Numbered from the stretch's first letter, positions 1,196 through 15,541 are shown. The stretch: 15,541 nucleotides of DNA from Promethearchaeia archaeon (GCA_029856045.1 JAHQWG010000052.1:1-15541), one strand, 5' to 3'. Notes: a model not told the origin generated them from the letters alone. Translations and numbers: made by a program.

Positions 1196-2869
1196 TTATT
1201 TTTTGTGTGAAACTATAATTTCAGTTCCGAATAATATCTTTTTTGCTGTTTCAAAAGCAAAGTTATAGTCGAACACCTTCTTTCCCTTGGTATTAGTTGC
1301 ATCCTTAAAAACCTGGCTTTCGACTTTATATTTTAAACGCCCAATATCCAGAGCACCGATCCCATAAATACCCGGATAAATCTCATCGTCATTAGAATTT
1401 GGTTTTAATCCTTCAATCCCATATGGTGGAACTAAATTAATATCGAGAACAATCTTGTTTGGCGGGAGTTTTTCCATTAATTCTTTTGATATCATTTGAA
1501 TTCCGGCTTTTGCAACTGACCAAATTATATCGGCATCTTTTACTATTTCAAATTTCTCCTCATCAGTGGATGCCGCTACTCCAATTATTTCAGAAGCATC
1601 TTTACCAGCCTTTTCCGTTAATTTCTTTGCAAGTTCTTTTACAGCCTTTTCCCGACGAGAAATTATTATGGGTGTAGCGTGAAATTTAGCCGCGAGTATC
1701 GCTCCAATTTGCCCTACTGGTCCAGTACCCCCTAAAATGACTATTTTCTTTCCTGTAAAATCTGTTATTCCATGTTTTCTTGCAATTTCTATGGTTTTAG
1801 CAACAACTGCAGAAGCTGTAGTATGAGCTCCACGGGGATCTATAATTACAGGCGCCTCAAAAGGTGGAACAAGCGCATTTTGTATCTCTTCTGCAACTCT
1901 CTCTCCTTCATCAACATTTGATCCACCAACAAAATAAACGGTTGGAGCATTTGGTTTTCGTGAAAACATAGCATCTTGGACCAACTTTGCGACTCTATCA
2001 GATGTAATTTTGCAAAATGGAATAACAACATTAAATCCTGCATCATAGGCCATATTTATATCAAAAGGTGAAGCATATTCATCAGTATCAAAAAAATACA
2101 AAATACTCTCCGCTTTCTCTTTTTTCTTTACCTTTATTGGAATTATTTCAAGAACAGAGGTATTTATTAGTTCTTTTACTGAAGAAATATCATCCAAAGA
2201 TTCTTTAGCAACTTTTTTGATATTAATTTGTTCAATTTCAAGTCCTAAGTCATCTGCAAGATTTGTAATGCCTTCAAAATGTCTTTTATCACTTATAAAC
2301 AGTGCCTTTAAATGTTTTTTTTCGACTTTTTTCGCCAATTCAAAAATCCCCATCATCATCCAAGATTCGCGGATTTTATATCTTATCTCATTTTCCTGCT
2401 TATTATATTCATCAGATAAATGTTCTCTCCACATTACTAACTGTTGATAATGAGGATCATTCGGATGAATTCCGCCTTTTTCTTTTAATTGTTGAATTTC
2501 TGTATTTAATTTTTGAATAAGATCTTTACTACCATTCAATCCCGAAGAAATATAATTTAGAGCATTCTCGGGGATGCCTATCATTTTGTAGGGAATCTCA
2601 TTCTTTCTGAATAAATCTACGAATTCATCTTCATAAAGCAGTCTATCATTTGACCTCATCCCTTTATCCTCTACTACGAAGTCAGGGCTATATTTATTTA
2701 CTAAATTTTCAACAAATTCCATATATTCCTTAGAAACAAAAAATAAATTTGCAGCAATGGCTTCTTCCCCTGTCGGCTCTTCTAACGACCAATCTATCGG
2801 AAATTCACTCTCAACTAATACTAACTTAAGAGTCTTATTTTTTAAAGGTTTTAATTCTAAAGATTGCAT
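1196..2869 (-). CDS. mtdB: Fusion of an N-terminal TraB/Tiki-like domain (~230 aa) and an NAD(P)-dependent methylene-H4MPT dehydrogenase (MtdB/MtdA family); NADP-type fingerprint
   Basis: C-terminal half has DTDEYASPFDINMAYDAG, LVQDAMFSR, DPRGAHTTASA, GGTGPVG and DINLVPPYGIEG, all typical of MtdB/MtdA. GAGGT SD lies upstream of the ATG. Confidence 0.8.
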   Translation of the reverse strand: MQSLELKPLKNKTLKLVLVESEFPIDWSLEEPTGEEAIAANLFFVSKEYMEFVENLVNKYSPDFVVEDKGMRSNDRLLYEDEFVDLFRKNEIPYKMIGIPENALNYISSGLNGSKDLIQKLNTEIQQLKEKGGIHPNDPHYQQLVMWREHLSDEYNKQENEIRYKIRESWMMMGIFELAKKVEKKHLKALFISDKRHFEGITNLADDLGLEIEQINIKKVAKESLDDISSVKELINTSVLEIIPIKVKKKEKAESILYFFDTDEYASPFDINMAYDAGFNVVIPFCKITSDRVAKLVQDAMFSRKPNAPTVYFVGGSNVDEGERVAEEIQNALVPPFEAPVIIDPRGAHTTASAVVAKTIEIARKHGITDFTGKKIVILGGTGPVGQIGAILAAKFHATPIIISRREKAVKELAKKLTEKAGKDASEIIGVAASTDEEKFEIVKDADIIWSVAKAGIQMISKELMEKLPPNKIVLDINLVPPYGIEGLKPNSNDDEIYPGIYGIGALDIGRLKYKVESQVFKDATNTKGKKVFDYNFAFETAKKILFGTEIIVSHKK

Positions 2870-2891
2870 TTTTTAATTTACCTCATATTTT

Positions 2892-3590
2892 TTATTCAAT
2901 TTGTGTTGCGTGTTGTCCTATTTTTTTGAAAACTCTATTAACATTAATTTTTTCAACTTTTATTTCTAAATCATCTGCTAGAGATTTAATTCCATCAGAA
3001 TGTTCCTTATCACAGATAAATATTGCTTTTAGATTTTTCTTCTCAATCTTCCTTGCTAAATCAAGAATCCCCATCATCATCCAAGATTCTCGGACTTCAT
3101 ATCTTATCTCATCTTTTTGTCTGGAATATTCATCTTGTAAATGATCCCTCCACGCAATTAATTGCTGAAGGTTAAAATCGTTAGGATGGACACCACCCTT
3201 CTCTTTTAAATTCTCAATTTCTACTTTAATTTCTCTTAATAGACCTACATCTCTATCTATTGTCGAAGCAAGATAACCCAGAGCATTCTCGGAAATATCT
3301 ACCATTTTATATTGAATGTTAAATTTCCTGAATAAATCTACTAAAGCATCTTCATATTGTAAATCATCGCCTGAGCGCATTCCTTTCTCTTCCACTATAA
3401 AATCAGGCTTGTGATCTTTTACCAGATCTTCAATAAATTGCAAATATTCTTTAGACATAAGAAATAAATCCGCAGTAGTCATTTTTTTATCTGATGATAA
3501 TTCCATCGACCAATCTATCGGAAATTCACTCTCTACCAATAACAATTTAAGAGTTTTATTTTTTAAAGGTTCTAATTCTAATGTTTGCAT
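2892..3590 (-). CDS. Stand-alone paralogue of the N-terminal domain of the Mtd fusions (TraB/Tiki-like, unknown function)
   Basis: Colinear with aa 1-220 of 1196..2869 (ESEFPIDW, PDFIVEEKGMRS, KEKGGVHPND, RESWMMMGILD, ICDKEH). AGGAGGT SD upstream. Confidence 0.85.
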   Translation of the reverse strand: MQTLELEPLKNKTLKLLLVESEFPIDWSMELSSDKKMTTADLFLMSKEYLQFIEDLVKDHKPDFIVEEKGMRSGDDLQYEDALVDLFRKFNIQYKMVDISENALGYLASTIDRDVGLLREIKVEIENLKEKGGVHPNDFNLQQLIAWRDHLQDEYSRQKDEIRYEVRESWMMMGILDLARKIEKKNLKAIFICDKEHSDGIKSLADDLEIKVEKINVNRVFKKIGQHATQIE

Positions 3591-3608
3591 TTCTTTTTTA
3601 CCTCCTGT

Positions 3609-4238
3609 TTAAGTTAAAATTAAAATTGATTTTTTTTTCATAATTTTGTTAGTCTCAAAATTAATAACCTTGATACTTTGAGCTTCAAATAACTTTTTCA
3701 ATTCAGAAAACAATTCTTTATGGGTAAAATGGATAAAATTAATCTCATCTTCATTGATCATCTCAATTATATCTAATACTTTTTTTATGATCCATAAAGG
3801 CCTTAGTTTTAAGTCTAAATAATCTTCTTTGTCTTTTACTTCACTTTTTAAGAGATGTATCCATGAGAACAGGTTTTGAGCCTTTAATGACTCTTTTTCA
3901 GCAGGATTTAAACAGAGGTTTTCATATTCTCCTTGAAGTTCCTCAACTTGTTCTTTTTTATCTGATATCTCATTTAATAAATGGATTTTTGCGTAATCAG
4001 GGATATTAACATAATAATACGGCGTCTCAAAATTATCAAAAAACTGTGCTAAAGGAGTCTGATAAATCTTTTTTAATTCATCATCGCATAAATCAATCGT
4101 AGCAAAATTGAATTTTTTTCCTCTTAAGAGAATCAATAAATTATCATATTCTGCATCTGATAATTCTTTACTTTCCTTTTCTATTAGACATAAAGAAACT
4201 TTCTTTTCTTTTATCGGTTTTAATTCCAATACTTCCAT
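3609..4238 (-). CDS. Hypothetical protein, divergent member of the same domain family; first gene of operon 2
   Basis: Clear paralogue of 6260..6919 (FNFATIDL, IPDYAK, EISDKKEQ, AEKESLKAQNL, WIIKK). Same MxxLELxP start as the other family members. Confidence 0.8.
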   Translation of the reverse strand: MEVLELKPIKEKKVSLCLIEKESKELSDAEYDNLLILLRGKKFNFATIDLCDDELKKIYQTPLAQFFDNFETPYYYVNIPDYAKIHLLNEISDKKEQVEELQGEYENLCLNPAEKESLKAQNLFSWIHLLKSEVKDKEDYLDLKLRPLWIIKKVLDIIEMINEDEINFIHFTHKELFSELKKLFEAQSIKVINFETNKIMKKKSILILT

Positions 4239-4355
4239 TTTTTTTATCCCATTCCAAATTTTTAGGTATTTTTTTTTTCTTGAATTTTTTTATTACTATT
4301 TAATTGATTTAAATGCAATAATTTAATATATTTGATAAGAGGAATTTTGGACAAC

Positions 4356-4375
4356 TTGACTAATTAATTAGTCAA
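4356..4375. promoter_or_regulatory. Perfect 20-bp palindrome TTGACTAATTAATTAGTCAA, putative operator upstream of operon 2
   Basis: Exact inverted repeat in intergenic DNA about 120 bp upstream of ATG 4238. A counterpart lies at 7030-7049. Confidence 0.65.
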
Positions 4376-4382
4376 ATTGACC

Positions 4383-4512
4383 ATTTTTTTTATCATAAAT
4401 TAAAAGAATTTCTATTTTATAACTAGTTGTGAAAAAAATTTGACAAAAAAAGTTTGATAAAATTGACAATTGGAATAATCAAGAAAACAATTTTTTTTAT
4501 CATAAATTAAAA
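4383..4512. repeat. 23-bp exact direct repeat ATTTTTTTTATCATAAATTAAAA (4383-4405 and 4490-4512)
   Basis: Two identical copies read directly in the intergenic region between the two Mtd operons. Confidence 0.75.
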
Positions 4513-4562
4513 TATGCTTTTTAAGAATAAAATTAAAAAAAAAAAGTGAGTTTTGAATTTAT

Positions 4563-6245
4563 TTAGCGAGATATTACCATTTCTTTGCCAAATAATATTT
4601 CTTTTGCAATTTCAAAAGCAATATTATAATCGAATATTTTTTTTCCTTTAGTCTTAGTAGCTTTTTTAAGAATAGAACTTTCAGTTACAGATTTTAAATG
4701 GCCTATTCCTAATGCCCCGATTCCAAAAATTCCGGGATATATTTCTTCATTATCATATTTTGGTTTTATACCTTCAATACCATACGGTGGAACCAAATTA
4801 ATGTCTATAACGATTTTATTTTTTGGCAACTTACTCATTAATTCTATTGATAAAATTTGGATTCCTGCAGCTGCTAAAGACCAGATTATGTCAGCATCTT
4901 TGACTATTTTAAATTTTTGCTCATCCGTTATAGCGAATTCTCCAACTATTTCAGAAGCGCCTTCTCCTGCCTCTTCAGTTAATTCTTTTGCAAGTTTCTT
5001 AACGGCTTTTTCACTCCCTTTATCCCATGTCTCAACTAGAACTGTTTTACATTTTTGTTTTGCCGCAATTACTGCTGCAATTCGTCCAACTGGACCCGTG
5101 CCTAATACAACCGCTTTTTTTCCAGAGATATTATTTATCTTATGTTTCATTGCAACTTCTAGAGTTTTCGCGACTATTGCCGAAGCTGTAGTATGAGATC
5201 CTCGTGGATCTATAATTACAGGAACTTCGAAAGGTGGCACTAAGGACTTCACAACTGTTTTCGCAATTTTTTCACCTTCTCTTACATTTGCCCCACCAAT
5301 AAAAAAACTGGTCGGTGCTTTCGGTTTTCGTGAAAATATCGCATCCTGTACAAGTTTTGGCACTTGTTCAGCTTTTACATTGCTAATAGGAATGACTACA
5401 TCAAACCCTGCATCATATGCCATATTAATATCAAAGGGAGATGCATGCTCATCTGTATCTAAGAAATATACAATTTTTTCTAAAGAATTTTTATTCTTAA
5501 TTTTAACGGGAGCAACTTCCATAAGTGATACCTTTACGAATTCCTTTATCGTATTTGGTTTCTCTAAATCTCCAATATTTAAAATATTTTTCTTAACTTC
5601 AAATTTTTGAATTTCTACTCCAAGGTCATCTGCAAGGGTTGTAATCCCATTAAAATGCCTTTTATCACAAATAAATAGACATTTTAAGTTTTTCTCTTTC
5701 TGTTCTCTTGCCATATCAAGAATCCCCATCATCATCCAAGCTTCACGGATCTTATACCTTATTTCTTCCTCTTGATTTTCGTATTCCGCCTGTAAATATT
5801 CTCTCCACGTTAATAATTGCTGAAAATAGTGATCATTAGGATGAACCCCTCCTTTTTCTTTAATTTTTTCAATTTCTGCTTTAATCCCCTTTAAAAGTTC
5901 TACATTCTTGTTTATTGCTGAAACGAGATAACCAAGTGCGTTTTCTTCAATGTCTACCATTTTATAAGGTATTTTAAAATCTCTAAATAAATCTACAAAA
6001 GCATCATCATAATGTAATTTATCACTGGAACGCAATCCTTGTTCTTCAACTGCAAAATTTGTTTTATATTTCCGTAACATATCTTCAATAAGCTTAAGAT
6101 AATCTTTTGACATAAAACTGAAATTTAAAGATTGTTCAAGCTGCTCTTTTGTTGGTTCCAACCACCAACCAATTGGAAACTCACTTTCCATTAATGTTAT
6201 TTCTAATTTCTGGTTTTTTAATGGCTTTAATTCAAGTACATTCAA
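4563..6245 (-). CDS. mtdB: Fusion of an N-terminal TraB/Tiki-like domain and an NAD(P)-dependent methylene-H4MPT dehydrogenase (MtdB/MtdA family); NAD-type fingerprint
   Basis: DTDEHASPFDINMAYDAG, LVQDAIFSR, DPRGSHTTASA, GTGPVG, DINLVPPYGIEG. Full-length paralogue of 1196..2869. TTG start lies 10 nt after GGAGG, the same spacing as the ATG at 3590. Confidence 0.8.
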   Translation of the reverse strand: MNVLELKPLKNQKLEITLMESEFPIGWWLEPTKEQLEQSLNFSFMSKDYLKLIEDMLRKYKTNFAVEEQGLRSSDKLHYDDAFVDLFRDFKIPYKMVDIEENALGYLVSAINKNVELLKGIKAEIEKIKEKGGVHPNDHYFQQLLTWREYLQAEYENQEEEIRYKIREAWMMMGILDMAREQKEKNLKCLFICDKRHFNGITTLADDLGVEIQKFEVKKNILNIGDLEKPNTIKEFVKVSLMEVAPVKIKNKNSLEKIVYFLDTDEHASPFDINMAYDAGFDVVIPISNVKAEQVPKLVQDAIFSRKPKAPTSFFIGGANVREGEKIAKTVVKSLVPPFEVPVIIDPRGSHTTASAIVAKTLEVAMKHKINNISGKKAVVLGTGPVGRIAAVIAAKQKCKTVLVETWDKGSEKAVKKLAKELTEEAGEGASEIVGEFAITDEQKFKIVKDADIIWSLAAAGIQILSIELMSKLPKNKIVIDINLVPPYGIEGIKPKYDNEEIYPGIFGIGALGIGHLKSVTESSILKKATKTKGKKIFDYNIAFEIAKEILFGKEMVISR

Positions 6246-6919: not shown

Positions 6920-7026
6920 TTTAATCAAAAATCTTTATTTTTAATTTTTTTTTTTTAATTTATTCTTTTCTCGAGTAATAAACCTTATTTTATAATAAAA
7001 ATAATTTGATAAAAGAAATTTTATAT

Positions 7027-7052
7027 ATTTTAACAATAATTGTTGTTAAAAT
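7027..7052. promoter_or_regulatory. Near-perfect 26-bp palindrome with core TTAAC-N10-GTTAA (7030-7049), putative operator in the divergent intergenic region
   Basis: ATTTTAACAATAATTGTTGTTAAAAT has one mismatched pair. Same geometry as 4356-4375. Confidence 0.6.
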
Positions 7053-7416
7053 TGGGAGAAGTGAAAGAAATTAGTCATCGATGATTTATCAAATAATCAT
7101 TATTTAAAACAGTTTACTAAAAAAAATTGAATACGTCTTTTTTCCCTTCATTCTATGTAATCTTAAAGAAAAAATCTCGTTTTTTAAATAACTTGAATTA
7201 TCTTTTTTTTTTTTTAATTAATTTTATTTTCAGTTTAAAAAATTGGTATTATTTCTTTTTGAAGATTTTTGATCAGTAAGATTTTTATTTTTGATAATTT
7301 TATTTATCATAGTAGAAATGATAATTATTTTTTTTAATTATAATAATATTCAATTTTCGACAAAGAAATATAATTTCAAAATAATGTTTTATAAAATTTA
7401 TTAAAAGGAGATTGAA

Positions 7417-9948
7417 ATGGATATATATTCAATTTTAGCTCATCCATTTAGGAGGAAGATTTTACTACTTCTTGATAAGGAAAGTTATATCGCTTACACG
7501 GATTTGATGGACAGGTTAGGTTTAGAGACTACTGGGCAATTAAATTTTCACCTTAAAAAACTTGGGACTTTAATAAATAAAGATAAAAAATCCTATTTTC
7601 TCACGGAGGACGGAAAACGAGTTATAAATTTAATGAATATTGATAAAAAGATTTTGGCAGGCGAGGATATTGAATATTTAGATAAAGTTGGTAGTGAGAT
7701 TAATCGTGTAGGGGTTATTATTTGTAAGTGTAATACTGAAATTTCAAATCTTATAAGTATTAATGCACTTGAAAATTACCTTAAAAGAATTCCCAATGTG
7801 GTTACTGTGAAGATTTTTGATAATCTTTGTCAGGAGAAAAATATGGAACAGATTACTAAATGGTCTAAGGATAATTATTTGAATAAGATTGTTATTGCTG
7901 CGTGTTCTCCAAAAACTCATCTGCATATATTTGAGAGAATTTTTGATGGAGTTATTGATAAAGTTAATATTGAGATTGCTAACATCCGGGAACAATGTTG
8001 TTGGGTACATCAAAAGGAACCCACTTTAGCGTTAAAAAAAGCACAAATTTTAATTGAAGCGGCGGTTGAGCGCGTAGCATTACAAAAAGATGTTCAAGTA
8101 AAAACAGTTAAGATTGAAAAAAGTTGTGCTATTTTGGGTGGCGGAATTGCAGGGATGACACTTGCATCAAGTTTAGCAAAGGCTGGGATTAAAGTCTATT
8201 TAATTGAAAAATCCCCAACATTAGGAGGTAAAATTGCCAGGTGGAGTAAAATTTATGGAATGGGTGATTGTTCAATTTGTCTTATGTCAGAAATGATAGG
8301 TGAGGTCGTAAAAGAAAAAAATGTCGAAATTTATACCAATACTGAGATTGAGAAAGTTTCGGGTGAGGTAGGAAATTTTTCGATTGATTTAATTAAAAAG
8401 CCCCGATATATTGATGAAAAGAAATGTACTGGATGTAAAAGATGTATTGAAATTTGTAGTATAGAAAAAAGTAATCAATATGAATTTGGATTAACAGCAA
8501 GGAAGTTAATTTATATTCCTTATGTTCAATCTTATCCATATGCTCCAGTGATTGACCAAGAAGATATTGAAACTTGCCGACAATGTAGAATTTGCGAGCG
8601 AGCTTGCAACAATAATGCGATTGATTTGGATCAAAAACTTGAAAATATAAGGATTAGAGTTGGAACAAAAGTAATAGCAATAGGTGCAGATTTTTATTCT
8701 GATCTAAAGTCTTATAAATATAATCCCCAAAATGATATAATTACAACACCGGAATTTGAACGTATTCTATCAGCGGATGGACCAACAGAAGGTAAAATTT
8801 TGAAACTTTCAGATGGGAAACCCCCGAAAACTATCTCAATAATTCAATGTTTAGGCCCATTTGATGATTTGCCGGAACATTGTAGTACTCTCGCTTTAAA
8901 ATATTTGGAATCTATTTATTTACAGATTCCAGATTGTAAACTCAATATATTTTTTGATTTGAATAAAATTAGGAAATCTAATGGGTTCATGTTAGACCCA
9001 TCTGATGAAAAATTTCATTATTATGACAATATTGAAATTATAGAGAAAGGAAATAAGAAAATAATTATTTCTGATTCAGAGCAGTATCCCTCTGATATGA
9101 TCGTGTTAAATGTCAATTTTGTTCCAAATAAAGATTTAAAAGAACTTCGAAAGACATTAGATTTTACATTAGACGATCATGGTTTTATGAGTGAAGAAAC
9201 GCTGGCATCAGGTATTTTTGGTGTCGGTTCAATTAAAGGTCCATTAGATTATAATTCAGTGATCTCTTCTTCTAATGATATCGCTATTAAAATTATTTCA
9301 TTGTTATCAACTGATTATTTAATTACAGAATTTAGCGGTATCGAAATCAAAGAAGAGAATTGCGGATTGTGTGGTTTATGCATATTATCCTGCCCTTACA
9401 ATGCAATCACAATTGAGGCAGATAAAATTACTATTGATAAATTCAAATGTAAAGGATGCGGAACTTGTGTAAGTGTTTGTCCCACAAATGCACTTGACTT
9501 AAACATTGATACTACTGAAAAGATACTGAAATCAATTGAAGTATATTCTAAATTCAATTTAAAACCAAAAATAGTTGCATTCTGCTGTCGTTCTTGCGGA
9601 TATGGTGCAGCCGATGAAGCTGGTCTAAAGAAACTTTCCTATAATCCCAACATCTTTATTATTAAAGTTCCATGCACAGGGCGGGTAGATGCGAGTTTAA
9701 TTTTTAAATCTTTCAAATTTGGATTTGATGGAGTAATGATTATTGGTTGCAGAAAAGATTCCTGCCGATTTATAAATAGTGTAGATCAAGTAAAACAAAA
9801 AGTTAAACTTTTAAGAGAAGTTTTAGGTCCTATTGCTGAAAAACGAATAATACGTAAATCATTAAGCGCCGTCGAGGGCAATAAATTTGCAGAGATTGTA
9901 AATTCTTTTTATCAGAGATTATCGGAGGAGATTAAAAATGAAACCTAG
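7417..9948 (+). CDS. hdrA: Winged-helix (ArsR-like) DNA-binding domain fused to heterodisulfide reductase subunit A and a C-terminal MvhD domain
   Basis: aa 1-75 wHTH (LAHPFRRKILLLL...TGQLNFHLKKL...YFLTEDG). HdrA motifs CKC, AACSP, NIREQCCWVH, GGGIAG, DCSIC, four CxxCxxCxxxC ferredoxin motifs and EFERIL..DGPT. MvhD motifs FCCRSCGY, VPCTGRVD and DGVMIIGC...C. AGGAG SD upstream. Confidence 0.9.
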   Translation: MDIYSILAHPFRRKILLLLDKESYIAYTDLMDRLGLETTGQLNFHLKKLGTLINKDKKSYFLTEDGKRVINLMNIDKKILAGEDIEYLDKVGSEINRVGVIICKCNTEISNLISINALENYLKRIPNVVTVKIFDNLCQEKNMEQITKWSKDNYLNKIVIAACSPKTHLHIFERIFDGVIDKVNIEIANIREQCCWVHQKEPTLALKKAQILIEAAVERVALQKDVQVKTVKIEKSCAILGGGIAGMTLASSLAKAGIKVYLIEKSPTLGGKIARWSKIYGMGDCSICLMSEMIGEVVKEKNVEIYTNTEIEKVSGEVGNFSIDLIKKPRYIDEKKCTGCKRCIEICSIEKSNQYEFGLTARKLIYIPYVQSYPYAPVIDQEDIETCRQCRICERACNNNAIDLDQKLENIRIRVGTKVIAIGADFYSDLKSYKYNPQNDIITTPEFERILSADGPTEGKILKLSDGKPPKTISIIQCLGPFDDLPEHCSTLALKYLESIYLQIPDCKLNIFFDLNKIRKSNGFMLDPSDEKFHYYDNIEIIEKGNKKIIISDSEQYPSDMIVLNVNFVPNKDLKELRKTLDFTLDDHGFMSEETLASGIFGVGSIKGPLDYNSVISSSNDIAIKIISLLSTDYLITEFSGIEIKEENCGLCGLCILSCPYNAITIEADKITIDKFKCKGCGTCVSVCPTNALDLNIDTTEKILKSIEVYSKFNLKPKIVAFCCRSCGYGAADEAGLKKLSYNPNIFIIKVPCTGRVDASLIFKSFKFGFDGVMIIGCRKDSCRFINSVDQVKQKVKLLREVLGPIAEKRIIRKSLSAVEGNKFAEIVNSFYQRLSEEIKNET

Positions 9949-10699
9949 TTTCTTAATCGAATCATTGACTTCTTGTAGTGGTTGTATCTCAACAATGATT
10001 TCATTAGATATCTTTCCTCAATTTCTTGATAAGGTAAATCTCGTTCGTTGTTCATTTATGAGAGATGAAAATAATATCACTGAAAATGATATCGCTTTAA
10101 TTGAGGGGTGTGTTTCAGAGGAAAAACAAATCGATATTCTTAAAAATATTCGGAGTAAATCCAAGAGAGTAATTGCTTTAGGAACTTGTGCCGCTTTTGG
10201 AGGAATGCTTGCACTCTCAACGGTAAAACAAGCAGAACCTATATCTAATTATATTGAAATAGATGGAATAATTCCTGGATGTCCACCACCTTCTAAATTA
10301 TTAGGTAATTGTATTATTAGATTGTTAGAAAATAAAGATATAGTTTTACCTGAAAAAAACGTTTGTGCAGATTGTGAATTTAGAACTGATGATATTGAAA
10401 AAAAATTTAAGAGACGAATCAATGCAATAATGCCGAAAAATTATAATGTAGATAGTGAAATTGAAGATAAGCGTTGCTTTTTAGAAAGGGGAATTTTATG
10501 TTTGGGACCAATAACTAGAGATGGTTGCGAGTGTAAGTGCATTAAATTTGGCCTTCCTTGTGATGGGTGCATGGGACCAATTAAAAATGATTTCACCTCT
10601 AATACCATTAATTTTTTGAGCACGGTAAATCTTGCCAAAGGTCTAAGGAAATATAAAGGAATTTTCTATCGTTATTCAAAACCAAAAACCAAGAGGTAA
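9938..10699 (+). CDS. mvhG: [NiFe]-hydrogenase small subunit, group 3 (MvhG-like)
   Basis: SCSGC, IEG, GTCAAFGG, IPGCPP, CADC, CFL, CLGP, GCECKC and PCDGCMGP motifs. Overlaps the end of hdrA by 11 nt. Confidence 0.85.
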   Translation: MKPSFLIESLTSCSGCISTMISLDIFPQFLDKVNLVRCSFMRDENNITENDIALIEGCVSEEKQIDILKNIRSKSKRVIALGTCAAFGGMLALSTVKQAEPISNYIEIDGIIPGCPPPSKLLGNCIIRLLENKDIVLPEKNVCADCEFRTDDIEKKFKRRINAIMPKNYNVDSEIEDKRCFLERGILCLGPITRDGCECKCIKFGLPCDGCMGPIKNDFTSNTINFLSTVNLAKGLRKYKGIFYRYSKPKTKR

Positions 10700-10705
10700 A
10701 AAATT

Positions 10706-12010
10706 ATGAAGAAAGTAGTTGATGTATGCACCCGGGTTGAAGGACATGGAAATATAAAAATTTTACTTCAGAAGGATGAAATTACAAGTGTGAATTTTGA
10801 TCTTGAGATATTTCGAGGGTTTGAAAATCTATTGATTGATAAAAGGTTGATTGATGTTCCTAGAATTGCATCAAGAATATGTGGATTATGTCACGCATCA
10901 CAAACAATAGCAAGTTGCAAAGCAATAGAGAGCATGTATGAAATTGAACCCTCTCTACAATCAGTTCTTTTACGGCGATTATTAATGATTGGTGAGTTGA
11001 TAAAATCACATTCAATGCATTTCTTTTTTCAAGCATTTCCCGACCTTTTTGTAATTTTGGATAAACAACCAAAACCACTCTCACTGAATGAATTAGTCCA
11101 TTTTGATTCTAAATTAACTTCAAATATGTATGAATTAATAAAAATCGGCAATGAAATTGTGAATTTATTTGGCGGAAAATCCGTTCATTTAATAACACCC
11201 ATTATTGGTGGTATATTTTTTTCACCCTTAAAAAAAGAAATAAATCTTGCACGGAGATATCTACAAAATTCTATAAATAATTTAAAATGGGTTATTGAGC
11301 GTTTCATAGAGATATTTTCTCAATTTGATCCTCCTGTTGTTTATTCCTTACCAAATCCTGCTTATATGGGAATGCATAATGATGAAAAATTTGATCGGTA
11401 CAGTGGAATCTTACGATTGGCACAAAATAATAAAATTATCGCTGATTTTCCCGTATATAAACATTCACAATATTTTGATAAGCAGGAAGATTTACATGGA
11501 ATTGATTTCTATCTAAAAAACGACCAAAACATTCTTGTTGGCCCACTCGCACGGAATAAAATAATTAAAGATTATGGAATAGATGAACTGCAATCCTATA
11601 TTGGTCTTTTTAATAAAGAATGGCAAAATAGTATTTTATTCTCAAATTTTATTAGACTAATTGAAATGTTGTTTTTTTCTTATGAAGGTTTATCAATTCT
11701 AGATGAAGCTGAATTGATACAAAAAAATGATATAAGTCCCATTAATTTTTTAAAAAATAATGAAGGAATCGGCATGGTTGAGGCACCCCGAGGAACGCTT
11801 ATACATTATTATCATGTAAATAAAAAAAGATTAATTGATAAAGTGAAACTTTTTGTTGCAACTGAAATTAATTTGCCCATTATTGATGAAATCCTTACAA
11901 CACAAAGCCAAGAATTGTATGAAAGAACTGGTGATTTAAATCAGATCAAAAAACAAGCACAAATGATTATAAGATCGTTTGACCCCTGTATCTCTTGCGC
12001 AACACATTAA
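10706..12010 (+). CDS. mvhA: [NiFe]-hydrogenase large subunit, group 3 (MvhA-like), lacking the C-terminal extension
   Basis: TRVEGHG, RGFE, L1 RICGLC, VEAPRGTLIH and L2 DPCISCATH followed directly by TAA. Confidence 0.88.
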   Translation: MKKVVDVCTRVEGHGNIKILLQKDEITSVNFDLEIFRGFENLLIDKRLIDVPRIASRICGLCHASQTIASCKAIESMYEIEPSLQSVLLRRLLMIGELIKSHSMHFFFQAFPDLFVILDKQPKPLSLNELVHFDSKLTSNMYELIKIGNEIVNLFGGKSVHLITPIIGGIFFSPLKKEINLARRYLQNSINNLKWVIERFIEIFSQFDPPVVYSLPNPAYMGMHNDEKFDRYSGILRLAQNNKIIADFPVYKHSQYFDKQEDLHGIDFYLKNDQNILVGPLARNKIIKDYGIDELQSYIGLFNKEWQNSILFSNFIRLIEMLFFSYEGLSILDEAELIQKNDISPINFLKNNEGIGMVEAPRGTLIHYYHVNKKRLIDKVKLFVATEINLPIIDEILTTQSQELYERTGDLNQIKKQAQMIIRSFDPCISCATH

Positions 12011-12168: not shown

Positions 12169-14430
12169 TTATTTCTCTTCTTCCTTAAATATTTCCACTA
12201 TTTTATCTTCAGAATCTCTGAAAGGATGCAGAGCTCCTGTCCAATCCGGAAGATAAGTTTTATGTTTTTCCTCGAACCATTCAACAAATTCTTTTAAAAG
12301 ACTACGGTTTTCTAATGATTGTCTTCCTTTTACAAATAATGCTGAGAAAATATATTTCCCATATTCAATTATAATTGTGATATCTCCATGGTCAATAGTC
12401 TTTAGTAACTCCGAACTTTTTGTTGCTTCTTTAATGAAGGCTGTAATAGCAGTGAATAGACCTGCAATCAAGCCTGAATCGGCAATATCTCCCACTTGCT
12501 TAAAGTTATGGCTAACTAAATCCCTTCCATCTGAATAAATTACATAAAGTCCTTGCAGCTCGACTTTTTCATAATCATATGTGAATTCTGGAATCCAAAA
12601 AGAGATTTTTCCATTATAAAATAGATATTTTAAAGTAAAATAAAATCTACGCATTTCTTCCTTCTCTATTGGTCTAATTTCTTTCAAAAACTTATTATTC
12701 TTGATTATTTCTAATAAATCTTTAACTTCTTCTCTTTCTTCAATTTTTTCTGCTTTAACTTCTGGTTCAGGAGTTTTTACTACTAAATATCGATAGAGAT
12801 CTGTAACATATGCATCAAACTTTGGAAATTCAGAAATTCTTGAAAAAGAAATCTTTTCGACCATTTTTTCTCCCTTAAAAACATTTTTAGCAATAAAGAT
12901 TTTATTTAAATAATATAAAATTAATCCCCAGATTAATAGATTAAAAACATAGCGTGTATAAGTGAATGGAATCGCTAAAATTTCTAATAATGGAAATCCA
13001 CCTTGAGTTGAAAGGTTGACTTTGAACAATACTGTCCTTATTGTGTAAATATTTTTATCAAGAAATGAAAAATAAGCTGGTGAACCAGTAATCCAATATT
13101 CTTCCGGAGCAAAATTGATTGGAGGATAAAAACCTGCAAATCTAACCAATATTGAGATTAAAATGACAATCCCAAGATAGATAAAAGAAGTCATAGCAAT
13201 CTTTTTAATAAACTGCATACTTCTCGAGAAAAGATATGCAAAAAGTATAACAGAAAAAATTAAGATAAATGTATTTATGATATTAAATAGGTCTAATCTC
13301 AACGCCTCTTCTAAAAATATATTATTTCCATAAGAAATATCAGCTTTTAGTAGTAGTTCGTCAAAATATTCTTGACTCATAATTATCCCTATCTGTAATG
13401 GATTAATTAAAAATTGGTAAATAATAAGGAAAATTACACACCCTCCTACGCCAATAATTAAAGGAATATACCAATTTGTCCAATCTATCTTTTTTTTCTT
13501 CGTTTTTGTTCTTTTCCATAAATCAATTAACTTTATAAAAATTAAAATCGCAATAGGTTGAAAAATTTTATGGAATAAAATAAATATTCCAGCACCCATC
13601 ATAAAATATGCGAAGAAATAAAGTATGAAAACGTAATTTGTAGTAGTATCTGCTAAAAATAATAAAATGCTTAGAAGAGATATTGGAGTTCCTACTTGAA
13701 ACAAACTTCTAAAAGTATCTTCTCTCAATTTTTCTCCAATGTATACTCCTTTAAAGGAAATTTTACTACTATACACCAAGTGAATCCCAACTAACAGTGT
13801 AGCAATATATACAAATAAAATTTCCACAAACCATCCCATAGTTGTTGTACCTGTGGTTAAATCAATGCTCTCTAAACCTAAAAGTTCGATTATGACGGAT
13901 ATTAAGTATAGAGATATTGGCAAAAGAACAATTAATAATTTTAAGAGTTGTTTTTCTTCCGACCAATCACCTTTTATTAGTCCCTCTTCTATCATATCAG
14001 AAGGACTTTTTTTAAATTCAAAAGTTAGATCGGCAAGTTTATCCCTCATAACTCCCGGTTCTTTTCGCAATTTTCTCCATAATATAAGAAACGATAAAAG
14101 TGGACCTACTAAAAATATAAATGTTAAAGTTACAAAAGGATATTGGAAAAAATAGCCAATTAGAGACATCATATGAGAAAATATGAAAAAAAATGCCATA
14201 AAAATATTTTCTTGTTCTTGGGGATGCAATTGAAGCTCCTTAGGATCGATATCTGTTTGAAACATGATTGGTAAAATCCAATATACTAGAAAAAAAATAA
14301 CAATTCCTAAGAAGACTCTTAAGTATAATTTTCCAATTAATCTTTTATAAATAAAAGGAATTGGAATCGCCAAAAAAATGATTGGTAGCCCATTTAAAAA
14401 CAATAAATAAAATATTTCTATCGGTTCCAT
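12169..14430 (-). CDS. Multipass membrane protein (about 12-13 hydrophobic segments) with a C-terminal longin/roadblock-like domain
   Basis: Hydrophobic helices span aa ~5-510. The last ~130 aa (GLYVIYSDGRDL...DSGLIAGLFTAITAFIKE...IIIEYG...FEEKH...DWTG...F) follow the longin-like pattern common in Asgard proteins. Confidence 0.7.
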   Translation of the reverse strand: MEPIEIFYLLFLNGLPIIFLAIPIPFIYKRLIGKLYLRVFLGIVIFFLVYWILPIMFQTDIDPKELQLHPQEQENIFMAFFFIFSHMMSLIGYFFQYPFVTLTFIFLVGPLLSFLILWRKLRKEPGVMRDKLADLTFEFKKSPSDMIEEGLIKGDWSEEKQLLKLLIVLLPISLYLISVIIELLGLESIDLTTGTTTMGWFVEILFVYIATLLVGIHLVYSSKISFKGVYIGEKLREDTFRSLFQVGTPISLLSILLFLADTTTNYVFILYFFAYFMMGAGIFILFHKIFQPIAILIFIKLIDLWKRTKTKKKKIDWTNWYIPLIIGVGGCVIFLIIYQFLINPLQIGIIMSQEYFDELLLKADISYGNNIFLEEALRLDLFNIINTFILIFSVILFAYLFSRSMQFIKKIAMTSFIYLGIVILISILVRFAGFYPPINFAPEEYWITGSPAYFSFLDKNIYTIRTVLFKVNLSTQGGFPLLEILAIPFTYTRYVFNLLIWGLILYYLNKIFIAKNVFKGEKMVEKISFSRISEFPKFDAYVTDLYRYLVVKTPEPEVKAEKIEEREEVKDLLEIIKNNKFLKEIRPIEKEEMRRFYFTLKYLFYNGKISFWIPEFTYDYEKVELQGLYVIYSDGRDLVSHNFKQVGDIADSGLIAGLFTAITAFIKEATKSSELLKTIDHGDITIIIEYGKYIFSALFVKGRQSLENRSLLKEFVEWFEEKHKTYLPDWTGALHPFRDSEDKIVEIFKEEEK

Positions 14431-14514: not shown

Positions 14515-15541
14515 ATGAATAACATAGGGATAATCTCAGATAAAGATTTTGGAATTTTAAATGAACCACCTTTCCCCCGACCTTATTTTGAAGCATTTGA
14601 AACACCTTTAAGAATTAAATGTATTATGGATTACTTTGAAAAAAAGAACTTATTTGAAGATAATAGGATAAAAAAGATTCCAATAAGAAATTTTGAAAAG
14701 ATTGAGGCAATACTTGAATTAGTTCATACTAGATACCATATTGATTCAATAAAATATTTTTCAAATTTGGCTTCTGGAAGTGTTGGTGAAACTGTTTTCA
14801 TTACTGAAGAGACATTTAAATTAGCAAAAAAAGCAGTTGAAGGAACAATTACTGCTTTTAATTCCGTCATATCAGGAGAAGTCAATCAATCATTTGCTTT
14901 CATAAGACCTCCGGGTCATCATGCACTAAGAGATGTAGCTTCAGGTCTGTGCATTTTTAATAATATCGTAGTGGGTATTCAATATTTAAGAAAAATAAAA
15001 AAAAATGCGAAAAAATTCGCCATTATTGATATAGATAATCATTATGGAGATGGAATCGCCAAATTTTTTTATGAAGACCCTGAGGTCCTTTATTTTTCAA
15101 TTCATGAGTATGATTTTGACCAAGGGGAACTGGGTTTTATTCATGAGCTTGGAAATAATGAAGGTTTAGGCTATAACATTAATTTTCCAATACCTCCCAA
15201 AACTACTGATAAGTATTATTTAGATTTTTTTGATATTTTAGAGGCAGTGTTTTCAGAATTTAAACCTGAAATGATAATTATCGCCTGTGGATTTGATTGT
15301 CACTACACCGATCCCATCGGAAATTGTTTGCTTACAGCCAATTCCTACATAAAATTTACTCAAAAATTATTAACACTCGCAAATAATGTATGTAATGGGA
15401 AGATCTCATTTATCCTCGAAGGAGGATATAGCTTAAGTGCATTACCAATATGTTCTTACGCTATAGTTAAAACACTACTAGGTGATATGGTTAATCTACC
15501 TTCTCAAGAAAAAATAGAATTTCCCGAGGATTTAGATATCT
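14515..15541 (+). CDS. Zn-dependent histone deacetylase family protein (HDAC/AcuC/APAH), 3'-truncated by the window edge
   Basis: Manual translation from ATG 14515 (MNNIGIISDKDF...) is open to the end and contains RPPGHHA, GLCIFNN, DIDNHYGDG, SIH, GFD and LEGGY. Confidence 0.9.
   Translation, partial: MNNIGIISDKDFGILNEPPFPRPYFEAFETPLRIKCIMDYFEKKNLFEDNRIKKIPIRNFEKIEAILELVHTRYHIDSIKYFSNLASGSVGETVFITEETFKLAKKAVEGTITAFNSVISGEVNQSFAFIRPPGHHALRDVASGLCIFNNIVVGIQYLRKIKKNAKKFAIIDIDNHYGDGIAKFFYEDPEVLYFSIHEYDFDQGELGFIHELGNNEGLGYNINFPIPPKTTDKYYLDFFDILEAVFSEFKPEMIIIACGFDCHYTDPIGNCLLTANSYIKFTQKLLTLANNVCNGKISFILEGGYSLSALPICSYAIVKTLLGDMVNLPSQEKIEFPEDLDI

Follow-up and report, generated by a model that had tools for sequence, protein, structure and literature searches.

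This study was concerned with the cofactor sites of two fused dehydrogenases encoded on a stretch of DNA of 15,541 nucleotides (29% G+C) from a Promethearchaeia archaeon, which is called the window throughout. The window corresponds to contig C52, from a 3.34-Mb genome whose completeness is rated at 100%. Proteins closely related to its own carry the labels Lokiarchaeota, Promethearchaeota and other Asgard groups. On the minus strand, five related genes are packed into two tight units. The first, unit 1, consists of P0005 (6260-6928) and, after a gap of 14 nucleotides, P0002 (4563-6245). Unit 2 lies 324 nucleotides downstream and consists of P0004 (3609-4238), a gap of 18 nucleotides, P0003 (2892-3590), a gap of 22 nucleotides and P0001 (1196-2869). 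P0001 and P0002 encode fusion proteins of 557 and 560 residues with a dehydrogenase domain of the fold of MtdA, the methylene-tetrahydromethanopterin (methylene-H4MPT) dehydrogenase of bacteria. They belong to two classes that are named here after the residues at and after the end of the second strand (beta2) of the dinucleotide-binding unit, namely Ser-Arg-Arg (S-R-R) in P0001 and Glu-Thr-Trp (E-T-W) in P0002.

Both proteins begin with an unannotated domain of about 245 residues (a type-A accessory domain, residues ~1-245 of P0001), followed by an Mpt_N domain (PF09176) and a Rossmann domain. The assignment of P0001 was made from its open reading frame (ORF), Pfam, a PDB match and a model, and that of P0002 from its ORF and Pfam. 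Mpt_N was identified in P0001 (residues 268-345) and P0002 with E-values of 1e-24 and 4e-27, respectively (86.6 and 94.6 bits versus a gathering cut-off of 27), which is a mark of the MtdA/MtdB/MtdC family of methylene-H4MPT dehydrogenases. The crystallised MtdA of Methylorubrum extorquens (6tlk/1lu9) matches the C-terminal ~300 residues of both proteins (residues 254-545, E about 1e-32). In addition, the AlphaFold model of P0001 (predicted local distance difference test, pLDDT, 86) aligns with 6tlk/1lu9 with a template modelling (TM) score of 0.92 and a root-mean-square deviation of 2.0 A over 296 columns (E 1e-23). The superposition on MtdA that an earlier note on this DNA had proposed was thus obtained at the level of the fold, and not as ribose distances from coordinates. 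The same note had described the two genes as Mtd paralogues. An Mtd domain is indeed present in both, and the two domains are 66% identical, but neither protein is a plain Mtd. A description as simple paralogues of plain Mtd was rejected, because both genes are fusions and three free copies of the extra domain adjoin them. Weak matches of the Rossmann domains in NCBIfam and Pfam (npdG for P0001; 2-Hacid_dh, 3HCDH and hemA for P0002) were mixed and were not used as evidence.

The active-site residues of MtdA, which we take to be Phe18, Thr102, Lys256 and His260, were located in the window proteins by reading their positions off the alignment. The equivalents of F18, T102 and K256 (F269, T351 and K513) are kept in both copies and in all groups aligned, and T350, D476 and N478 are identical across the S-R and E-T-W classes. 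The position of His260 is occupied by Glu (E517) in both copies, with its codon on the minus strand at about 1319-1321 of the window in P0001 and in the 4680s in P0002. This Glu is invariant in the sampled Asgard S-R and E-T-W proteins and is present in 8 of 9 other fused forms, while MtdB-type proteins have Gln and MtdA-type proteins have His. This position may serve as a marker for the preferred pterin or for the mechanism. Judging by their sequences, the P0001 and P0002 genes both look intact and active, and because the catalytic and pterin-side residues are identical, both enzymes probably interconvert methylene- and methenyl-H4MPT.

The dinucleotide-binding beta-alpha-beta unit of P0001 (window 1646-1732, minus strand; from translation and the model) translates to GGTGPVGQIGAILAAKFHATPIIISRREK. 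It has the form GGTGPVG...IIIS404-R405-R406-EK, with the S-R-R codons at 1652-1660. The corresponding unit of P0002 (window 5019-5105, minus strand; from translation and alignment) translates to LGTGPVGRIAAVIAAKQKCKTVLVETWDK and has the form L-GTGPVG...VLVE405-T406-W407-DKG, with the E-T-W codons at 5025-5033. The motifs IIISRR and VLVETW, on which the earlier note had based its comparison, are exact by translation, and the interval it gave (1651 to 5103) brackets both. Compared with P0001, P0002 has a 4-residue insertion (W-D-K-G) after beta2 and one residue fewer before the glycine loop. In the P0001 model, beta1 spans residues 375-379, the glycine-loop helix 384-395 and beta2 399-404, with the following helix running from 407 onwards. 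Beta2 ends with Ser404, Arg405 and Arg406 lie in the loop behind it, and E405 of P0002 aligns with Ser404, the position being taken from the model for P0001 and from the alignment for P0002. Because beta2 ends at 404 and the next helix begins at 407, Ser404/Glu405 occupies, as modelled, the classical position that discriminates NAD from NADP.

In beta-alpha-beta folds that bind ADP, an acidic residue in the last position of beta2 hydrogen-bonds the 2'- and 3'-hydroxyls of the adenosine ribose and repels a 2'-phosphate. P0002 has the classical NAD-type fingerprint, which is GxGxxG with an acid at the C-terminal end of beta2 (GTGPVG and E405), and P0001 is without the acid. In the HMMER alignment, S404-R405-R406 of P0001 corresponds to G-R-K of MtdA. 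The mark of the NADP-specific MtdA type, a small residue followed by Arg and Lys/Arg directly after beta2, is present in P0001 and absent from P0002.

These residues are conserved in two classes of homologues. The 120 listed homologues of P0001 carry either (T/I)-S-R-(R/N/S) or (V/I/L/A)-E-(T/P)-W and nothing else. Among 117 full-length fused proteins, 109 were typed (29 S-R and 80 E-T-W) and 8 were left untyped. The residue at the end of beta2 is Ser in 100% of the S-R type and Glu in 100% of the E-T-W type. The next residue is Arg in 97% of the S-R class and Thr in 96% of the E-T-W class, and the Trp is present in 100% of the latter. From this alignment, the difference between the classes is not a matter of chance. 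Eleven columns separate the two classes while being conserved inside each of them, and eight of these lie at the dinucleotide site (glycine loop, beta2 end and post-beta4 loop). These eight are the glycine-loop indel, A398/C, T403/V, S404/E, R405/T, the Trp insertion and the two columns of G453-K454 versus A-A. Two of the other three are in the N-domain and one is F521 of P0001 versus L526 of P0002. Since 8 of the 11 discriminating columns are at the dinucleotide site and the catalytic residues are identical, the functional divergence of the classes, as read from the alignment, is focused on the cofactor pocket.

The window proteins were also compared with characterised enzymes. MtdA of Methylorubrum extorquens AM1, an NADP-dependent methylene-H4MPT/methylene-tetrahydrofolate (methylene-H4F) dehydrogenase (PDB 1LU9, 1LUA, 6TLK, 6TGE), has the same two-domain fold at 29% identity and the same catalytic F18, T102 and K256, and P0001 has an MtdA-like x-R-(K/R) loop after beta2. 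However, MtdA is a stand-alone protein of ~288 residues, whereas the archaeal proteins carry the additional N-terminal domain. MtdA also has His260 in place of the invariant Glu, and Gly-Arg-Lys where P0002 has Glu-Thr-Trp and the 4-residue insert. MtdA is reported to be NADP+-dependent (PMC11669175) and to act on H4F or H4MPT (PMC9012536). The clade of protein P0221 was taken as the MtdA clade because two fragments of the crystallised NADP-dependent MtdA match P0221 best. This clade has S-R in 11 of 11 members and His at position 260, and the crystallised MtdA sequence itself reads C-G-R-K.

MtdB of methylotrophic bacteria belongs to the same family and is reported to use NADH or NADPH (PMC3227643). 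The MtdB type was calibrated with orthologues from Methylobacillus, Methylovorus and Methylotenera, and MtdB-type proteins are named methylenetetrahydromethanopterin dehydrogenase in methylotrophs of the ribulose monophosphate (RuMP) type (Methylotenera, Methylobacillus flagellatus and Methylovorus). Their site reads (A/G/S)-H-(R/K) or G-Y-D, without Glu and rarely with Asp (D-H-F, in two representatives). They differ from the window enzymes in being unfused, in having Gln at the His260 position and in their motif of a small residue plus His without an acid. Glu at the beta2-end position was found in none of the bacterial groups compared. By its sequence, P0001 carries the mark of a known NADP enzyme, and P0002 carries an NAD mark that is stronger than that of any characterised family member. 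The MtdA/MtdB pair splits electrons derived from one-carbon (C1) units between NADH and NADPH (PMC3227643) and is a functional analogy for the window pair.

A profile search of 1.84 billion representatives was made, and 224 Mtd domains were aligned for FastTree. In the resulting tree an S-R clade of 42 tips (support 1.0) is sister to an E-T-W clade of 70 tips, and further E-T-W, E-T-A/G and E-T-D clades branch outside this pair. IQ-TREE (LG+C20) was run on 57 chosen rows with the trait columns kept in (about 6 of 312). The S-R clade and the clade of S-R plus E-T-W each received 100 in the Shimodaira-Hasegawa-like approximate likelihood ratio test (SH-aLRT), and S-R was nested inside E-T-W with moderate support (83-89). 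The nearest outgroups are Glu-type (ETA, ETG, ETD, ETW and EPY) except for one, which is S-L-N. With the S-R clade sitting among Glu-type sequences and Glu in nearly all of the outgroups, the trees indicate that Glu is ancestral in this archaeal clade and that S-R-R is a single derived switch after duplication. Such a switch from NAD to NADP after duplication looks like neofunctionalisation. Subfunctionalisation into isoenzymes, as the earlier note had suggested, was rejected in the sense of a symmetric split, since the S-R clade is nested in Glu-type sequences. Other Asgard families have a separate, older T-S-R lineage that groups with bacterial MtdA-like proteins. The Asgard split, on the basis of these trees, arose independently inside an archaeal clade.

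The distribution of the two types was determined in 201 sampled genomes of the phylum, 61 of which had a match, and all matches were typed. In the genus of the window both genes are present in 4 of 4 genomes, with the same tandem spacing where both lie on one contig. Within the family (41 genomes), both types were found in 10 genomes, S-R only in 7, E-T-W only in 17 and neither in 7. Two of the 10 genomes with both types carry a trio of S-R, E-T-W and E-T-L. Outside the family, T-S-R only was found in three families and E-T-W only in one. Also found there were A-E-P-(Y/F), I-S-P and one genome with two E-T-W copies plus one L-S-R copy. The question of whether relatives keep both variants, raised in the earlier note, has a divided answer, with both kept in all 4 genomes of the genus and in 10 of 41 family genomes, but only one in most genomes of the family. 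The pair of NAD-type and NADP-type genes is recurrent and not obligatory.

The accessory domain occurs in five copies between 1196 and 6928 of the window (minus strand), two fused and three free, each of ~210-245 residues. Two subtypes were distinguished. Type A comprises P0003 and the two fused N-domains, type B comprises P0004 and P0005, and each operon begins with a type-B gene. P0003 is a free type-A paralogue of 232 residues, recognised from its ORF and from its identity to the P0001 N-domain (59%) and the P0002 N-domain (55%). The first gene of its unit, P0004, is a free type-B paralogue of 209 residues with 48% identity to P0005 and 27% to P0003 (E 3e-13). P0005, a free type-B paralogue of 222 residues, was assigned by comparison with P0004. 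The domain had no Pfam or NCBIfam match. The P0003 model (pLDDT 85) has an alpha/beta core with a long helical hairpin, and a Foldseek search with this model gave no match. VIA-align gave ChaN (2g5g, Z 8.2, 147 residues) and HopBA1 (5t09, Z 7.8, 142 residues), values within the noise band of the tool. Both belong to the EreA/ChaN-like superfamily and are among the few rows that span most of the domain. Many copies in relatives are unfused, the accessory domain being a separate upstream gene, as in the split set of genome L079 described below.

Alignment of the two upstream regions identified an operator-like sequence. The region upstream of the P0004-P0003-P0001 unit (4239-4562, minus strand) contains TTGAC-N10-GTCAA followed by AAAATTCCTCTTATCAAAT. 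The region upstream of the P0005-P0002 unit (6929-7416, minus strand), which is common to the divergent hydrogenase genes, contains TTAAC-N10-GTTAA followed by AAAATTTCTTTTATCAAAT. The two regions share TTRAC-N10-GTYAA and then a near-identical AAAATTYCTYTTATCAAAT, at 4331-4375 and 7005-7049 of the window. Because this sequence is common to both upstream regions, it suggests co-regulation of the two operons and not alternative expression. The second copy of the palindrome lies within the divergent promoter region of genes on the plus strand (7417-12010) for a DUF7347-HdrA-MvhD fusion and MvhG-like and MvhA-like [NiFe] hydrogenase subunits, as assigned by Pfam. A DUF7347-HdrA neighbourhood next to Mtd-type genes recurs in a second Asgard genome, L079 (GCA_019058095.1, contig JAHLWC010000095.1), in which a split E-T-W-type set of 204, 240 and 332 residues is divergent from the DUF7347-HdrA gene. 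Also in L079, a 483-residue protein of the FrhB/FdhB type (F420-binding) with a faint TrmB match is encoded at 4136-5587, just downstream of an S-R-type Mtd fusion. The remainder of the window contains a gene for a short-chain dehydrogenase/reductase (SDR) at 174-1040, a 753-residue ORF on the minus strand (12169-14430) with no Pfam match at E <= 0.001, and a gene of the histone-deacetylase family (14515-15540) that flanks this ORF.

The genome also encodes Mch, the canonical F420-dependent Mtd and FolD, so the window pair is accessory. The F420-dependent Mtd (PF01993) catalyses the same reaction with the same C1 carrier as the window enzymes, but has an unrelated fold and another electron carrier. 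FolD, the bifunctional methylene-H4F dehydrogenase/cyclohydrolase, has a distantly related fold and NAD(P)-linked C1 dehydrogenation in common with them, but belongs to another family (PF00763/PF02882), is specific for H4F and has cyclohydrolase activity. F420-Mtd is present in 41 of 46 genomes of the family, so that enzymes of the NAD(P) type as a rule accompany the F420 enzyme. Three of the five family genomes without an F420-Mtd match belong to genus g3 (G019, G113 and G156). Two of these have a row of three unfused MtdA-like genes (T-S-R-R, E-T-W and E-T-L), as if NAD(P) enzymes had replaced the F420 enzyme, and only one copy was found in the third.

It is rather probable, in our assessment, that the pair represents a split in cofactor use, with NAD(H) as the partner of the Glu-type enzyme and NADP(H) as that of the S-R-R type. 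The window would then hold two co-regulated operons, the last gene of each encoding a methylene-H4MPT dehydrogenase of the MtdA fold that is joined to a lineage-specific accessory domain. P0002 would keep the ancestral Glu of the Asgard family at the end of beta2, which would exclude the 2'-phosphate, and it is predicted to be NAD-specific because a Glu at this place binds the ribose hydroxyls in such folds. The P0001 clade would have arisen once, by duplication inside Lokiarchaeia, with changes from Glu to Ser and from Thr to Arg, loss of the W-D-K-G insert that left a second Arg, and gain of a Lys after beta4. P0001 is predicted to prefer NADP because these changes re-create the (S/G)-R-(K/R) pocket of the NADP-specific bacterial MtdA. 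The opposite specificities suggested by the earlier note gain support from the position of the residues at the end of beta2 in the model, the invariance of each state in its own clade, the clustering of clade differences at the dinucleotide site and the match of S-R to the NADP-specific MtdA clade, but the preference itself is something that we infer.

Alongside the F420-dependent Mtd of the genome, the pair would allow one pool of C1 units to give or take electrons in the form of both NADH and NADPH, like MtdA and MtdB in methylotrophs. Because the H4MPT couple is very reducing, both enzymes would run mainly oxidatively in a fermenting or syntrophic Asgard cell. The NAD enzyme would produce NADH that is then disposed of, perhaps in the form of H2 through the adjoining hydrogenase, and the NADP enzyme would supply biosynthesis with NADPH. 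The choice of pterin, the flux direction and the co-expression of the pair are points that we infer, and an anabolic/catabolic split of the pair is conjecture.

Several points weigh against a strict division of cofactors. Contact of Glu405 or Arg405/Arg406 with the ribose is a proposal that draws on the general beta-alpha-beta rule and on equivalence with R152/K153 of MtdA. The beta2-end rule has exceptions, and S-R enzymes are often merely NADP-preferring. Many Glu-type sequences carry GxGxxA (GAGPVA), which classical lore ties to NADP; the GxGxxG versus GxGxxA rule was set aside as uninformative for these classes. The strict Thr and Trp after the Glu exceed what ribose discrimination needs. 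Also, the forms seem to be interchangeable in some lineages, given the 17 genomes with E-T-W only and the 7 with S-R only, and this is a poor fit with strict division of labour.

The single-form lineages bear on two other readings. If both enzymes accepted NAD and NADP, as MtdB does, a lineage with one form could cover all its needs with that form, and dual specificity exists in the family (PMC3227643). The motif would then tune affinity or stability. We regard this as quite unlikely, since the MtdB-type motif is a small residue with His/Arg and without an acid, while an invariant Glu (80 of 80) opposite a Ser-Arg sister clade is a pattern of specificity and not of tuning, and the class differences cluster at the cofactor site. 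The other reading joins both enzymes and F420-Mtd in a three-way redox hub, which, through the pterin, would function both as an F420H2:NAD(P)+ oxidoreductase and as an NADH/NADPH transhydrogenase, replacing Fno and PntAB under the regulator of the adjoining hydrogenase. F420-Mtd and Mch are encoded as this would need, and neither canonical Fno nor PntB was found in this genome rated 100% complete (TIGR01915 matched the Rossmann domain of P0001 only, and the best matches of PF03807 were ProC and a HIBADH-like reductase). The operator-like sequence is common to both operons, one of which is divergent from HdrA-Mvh, and this linkage recurs in L079. A precedent for redox exchange by way of the methenyl/methylene-H4MPT couple exists in methanogens, in their Hmd-Mtd cycle. 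However, most relatives have only one NAD(P) form, so transhydrogenation cannot be the general role, and a loop without control would abolish the NADH/NADPH disequilibrium. Three proteins of 860-930 residues in the genome also carry a Fer4_20 domain of the GltD/NfnB type, so other NAD(P)H-linked systems are available. The hub is unlikely on balance, and a transhydrogenase cycle of the pair through the pterin is conjecture. A fuller version, in which a Lokiarchaeia hub exchanging F420H2, NADH and NADPH in place of Fno and transhydrogenase is switched together with HdrA-Mvh by the common operator, and is possibly a complex assembled by type-A and type-B domains, is quite unlikely.

Two further explanations place the difference outside the choice between NAD and NADP. 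The paralogues might differ mainly in their pterin (H4MPT versus H4F) or reaction, with the cofactor motif secondary. MtdA uses both carriers (PMC9012536), the genome has Mch and FolD, and the F521/L526 column lies one helical turn after the catalytic K513/E517. This is very improbable in view of the identity of F269, T350/T351, K513, E517, D476 and N478 in both clades, and because, of the 11 discriminating columns, a single one lies close to the pterin side. The least credible explanation is that the Glu-type site holds another ADP-containing cofactor such as FAD, or a tightly bound, non-exchanging NAD. In its favour, the invariant Thr-Trp is unexplained, and the P0002 beta-alpha-beta segment alone scores best against the FAD motifs of thioredoxin reductase and dihydrolipoamide dehydrogenase, which have an hhhE ending (E 0.03, not significant). 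Those E-values do not rise above chance, the whole domain has the MtdA fold, where nicotinamide meets pterin, and we know of no flavin-dependent member of that fold.

Isoenzyme pairs of Mtd with differing nicotinamide use are already known in methylotrophic bacteria. What is new here is the independent, polarised NAD-to-NADP switch in an archaeal clade, the Glu-type class without a characterised member, and the context of fusions and operons. A literature search found no paper on NAD versus NADP types of Asgard Mtd, which is not proof that there is none, and, among enzymes of the MtdA fold, found no characterised one of the Glu type, which is presumably NAD-specific. Of all known organisms, Asgard archaea are most closely related to eukaryotes. 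Reconstructions of their energy metabolism draw almost wholly on gene names, and these genes are usually labelled merely "Mtd" or "MtdB-like". If one enzyme is NAD-specific and the other NADP-preferring, the electron carrier of the C1 branch would vary among lineages that have one, the other or both, and redox balances would have to be redrawn for the syntrophic oxidation of amino acids or C1 units. The family would also provide a natural, phylogenetically polarised cofactor switch, from Glu-Thr-Trp with its insert to Ser-Arg-Arg, that is testable by mutagenesis. In cells with both enzymes, one-carbon oxidation could feed both cellular electron pools.

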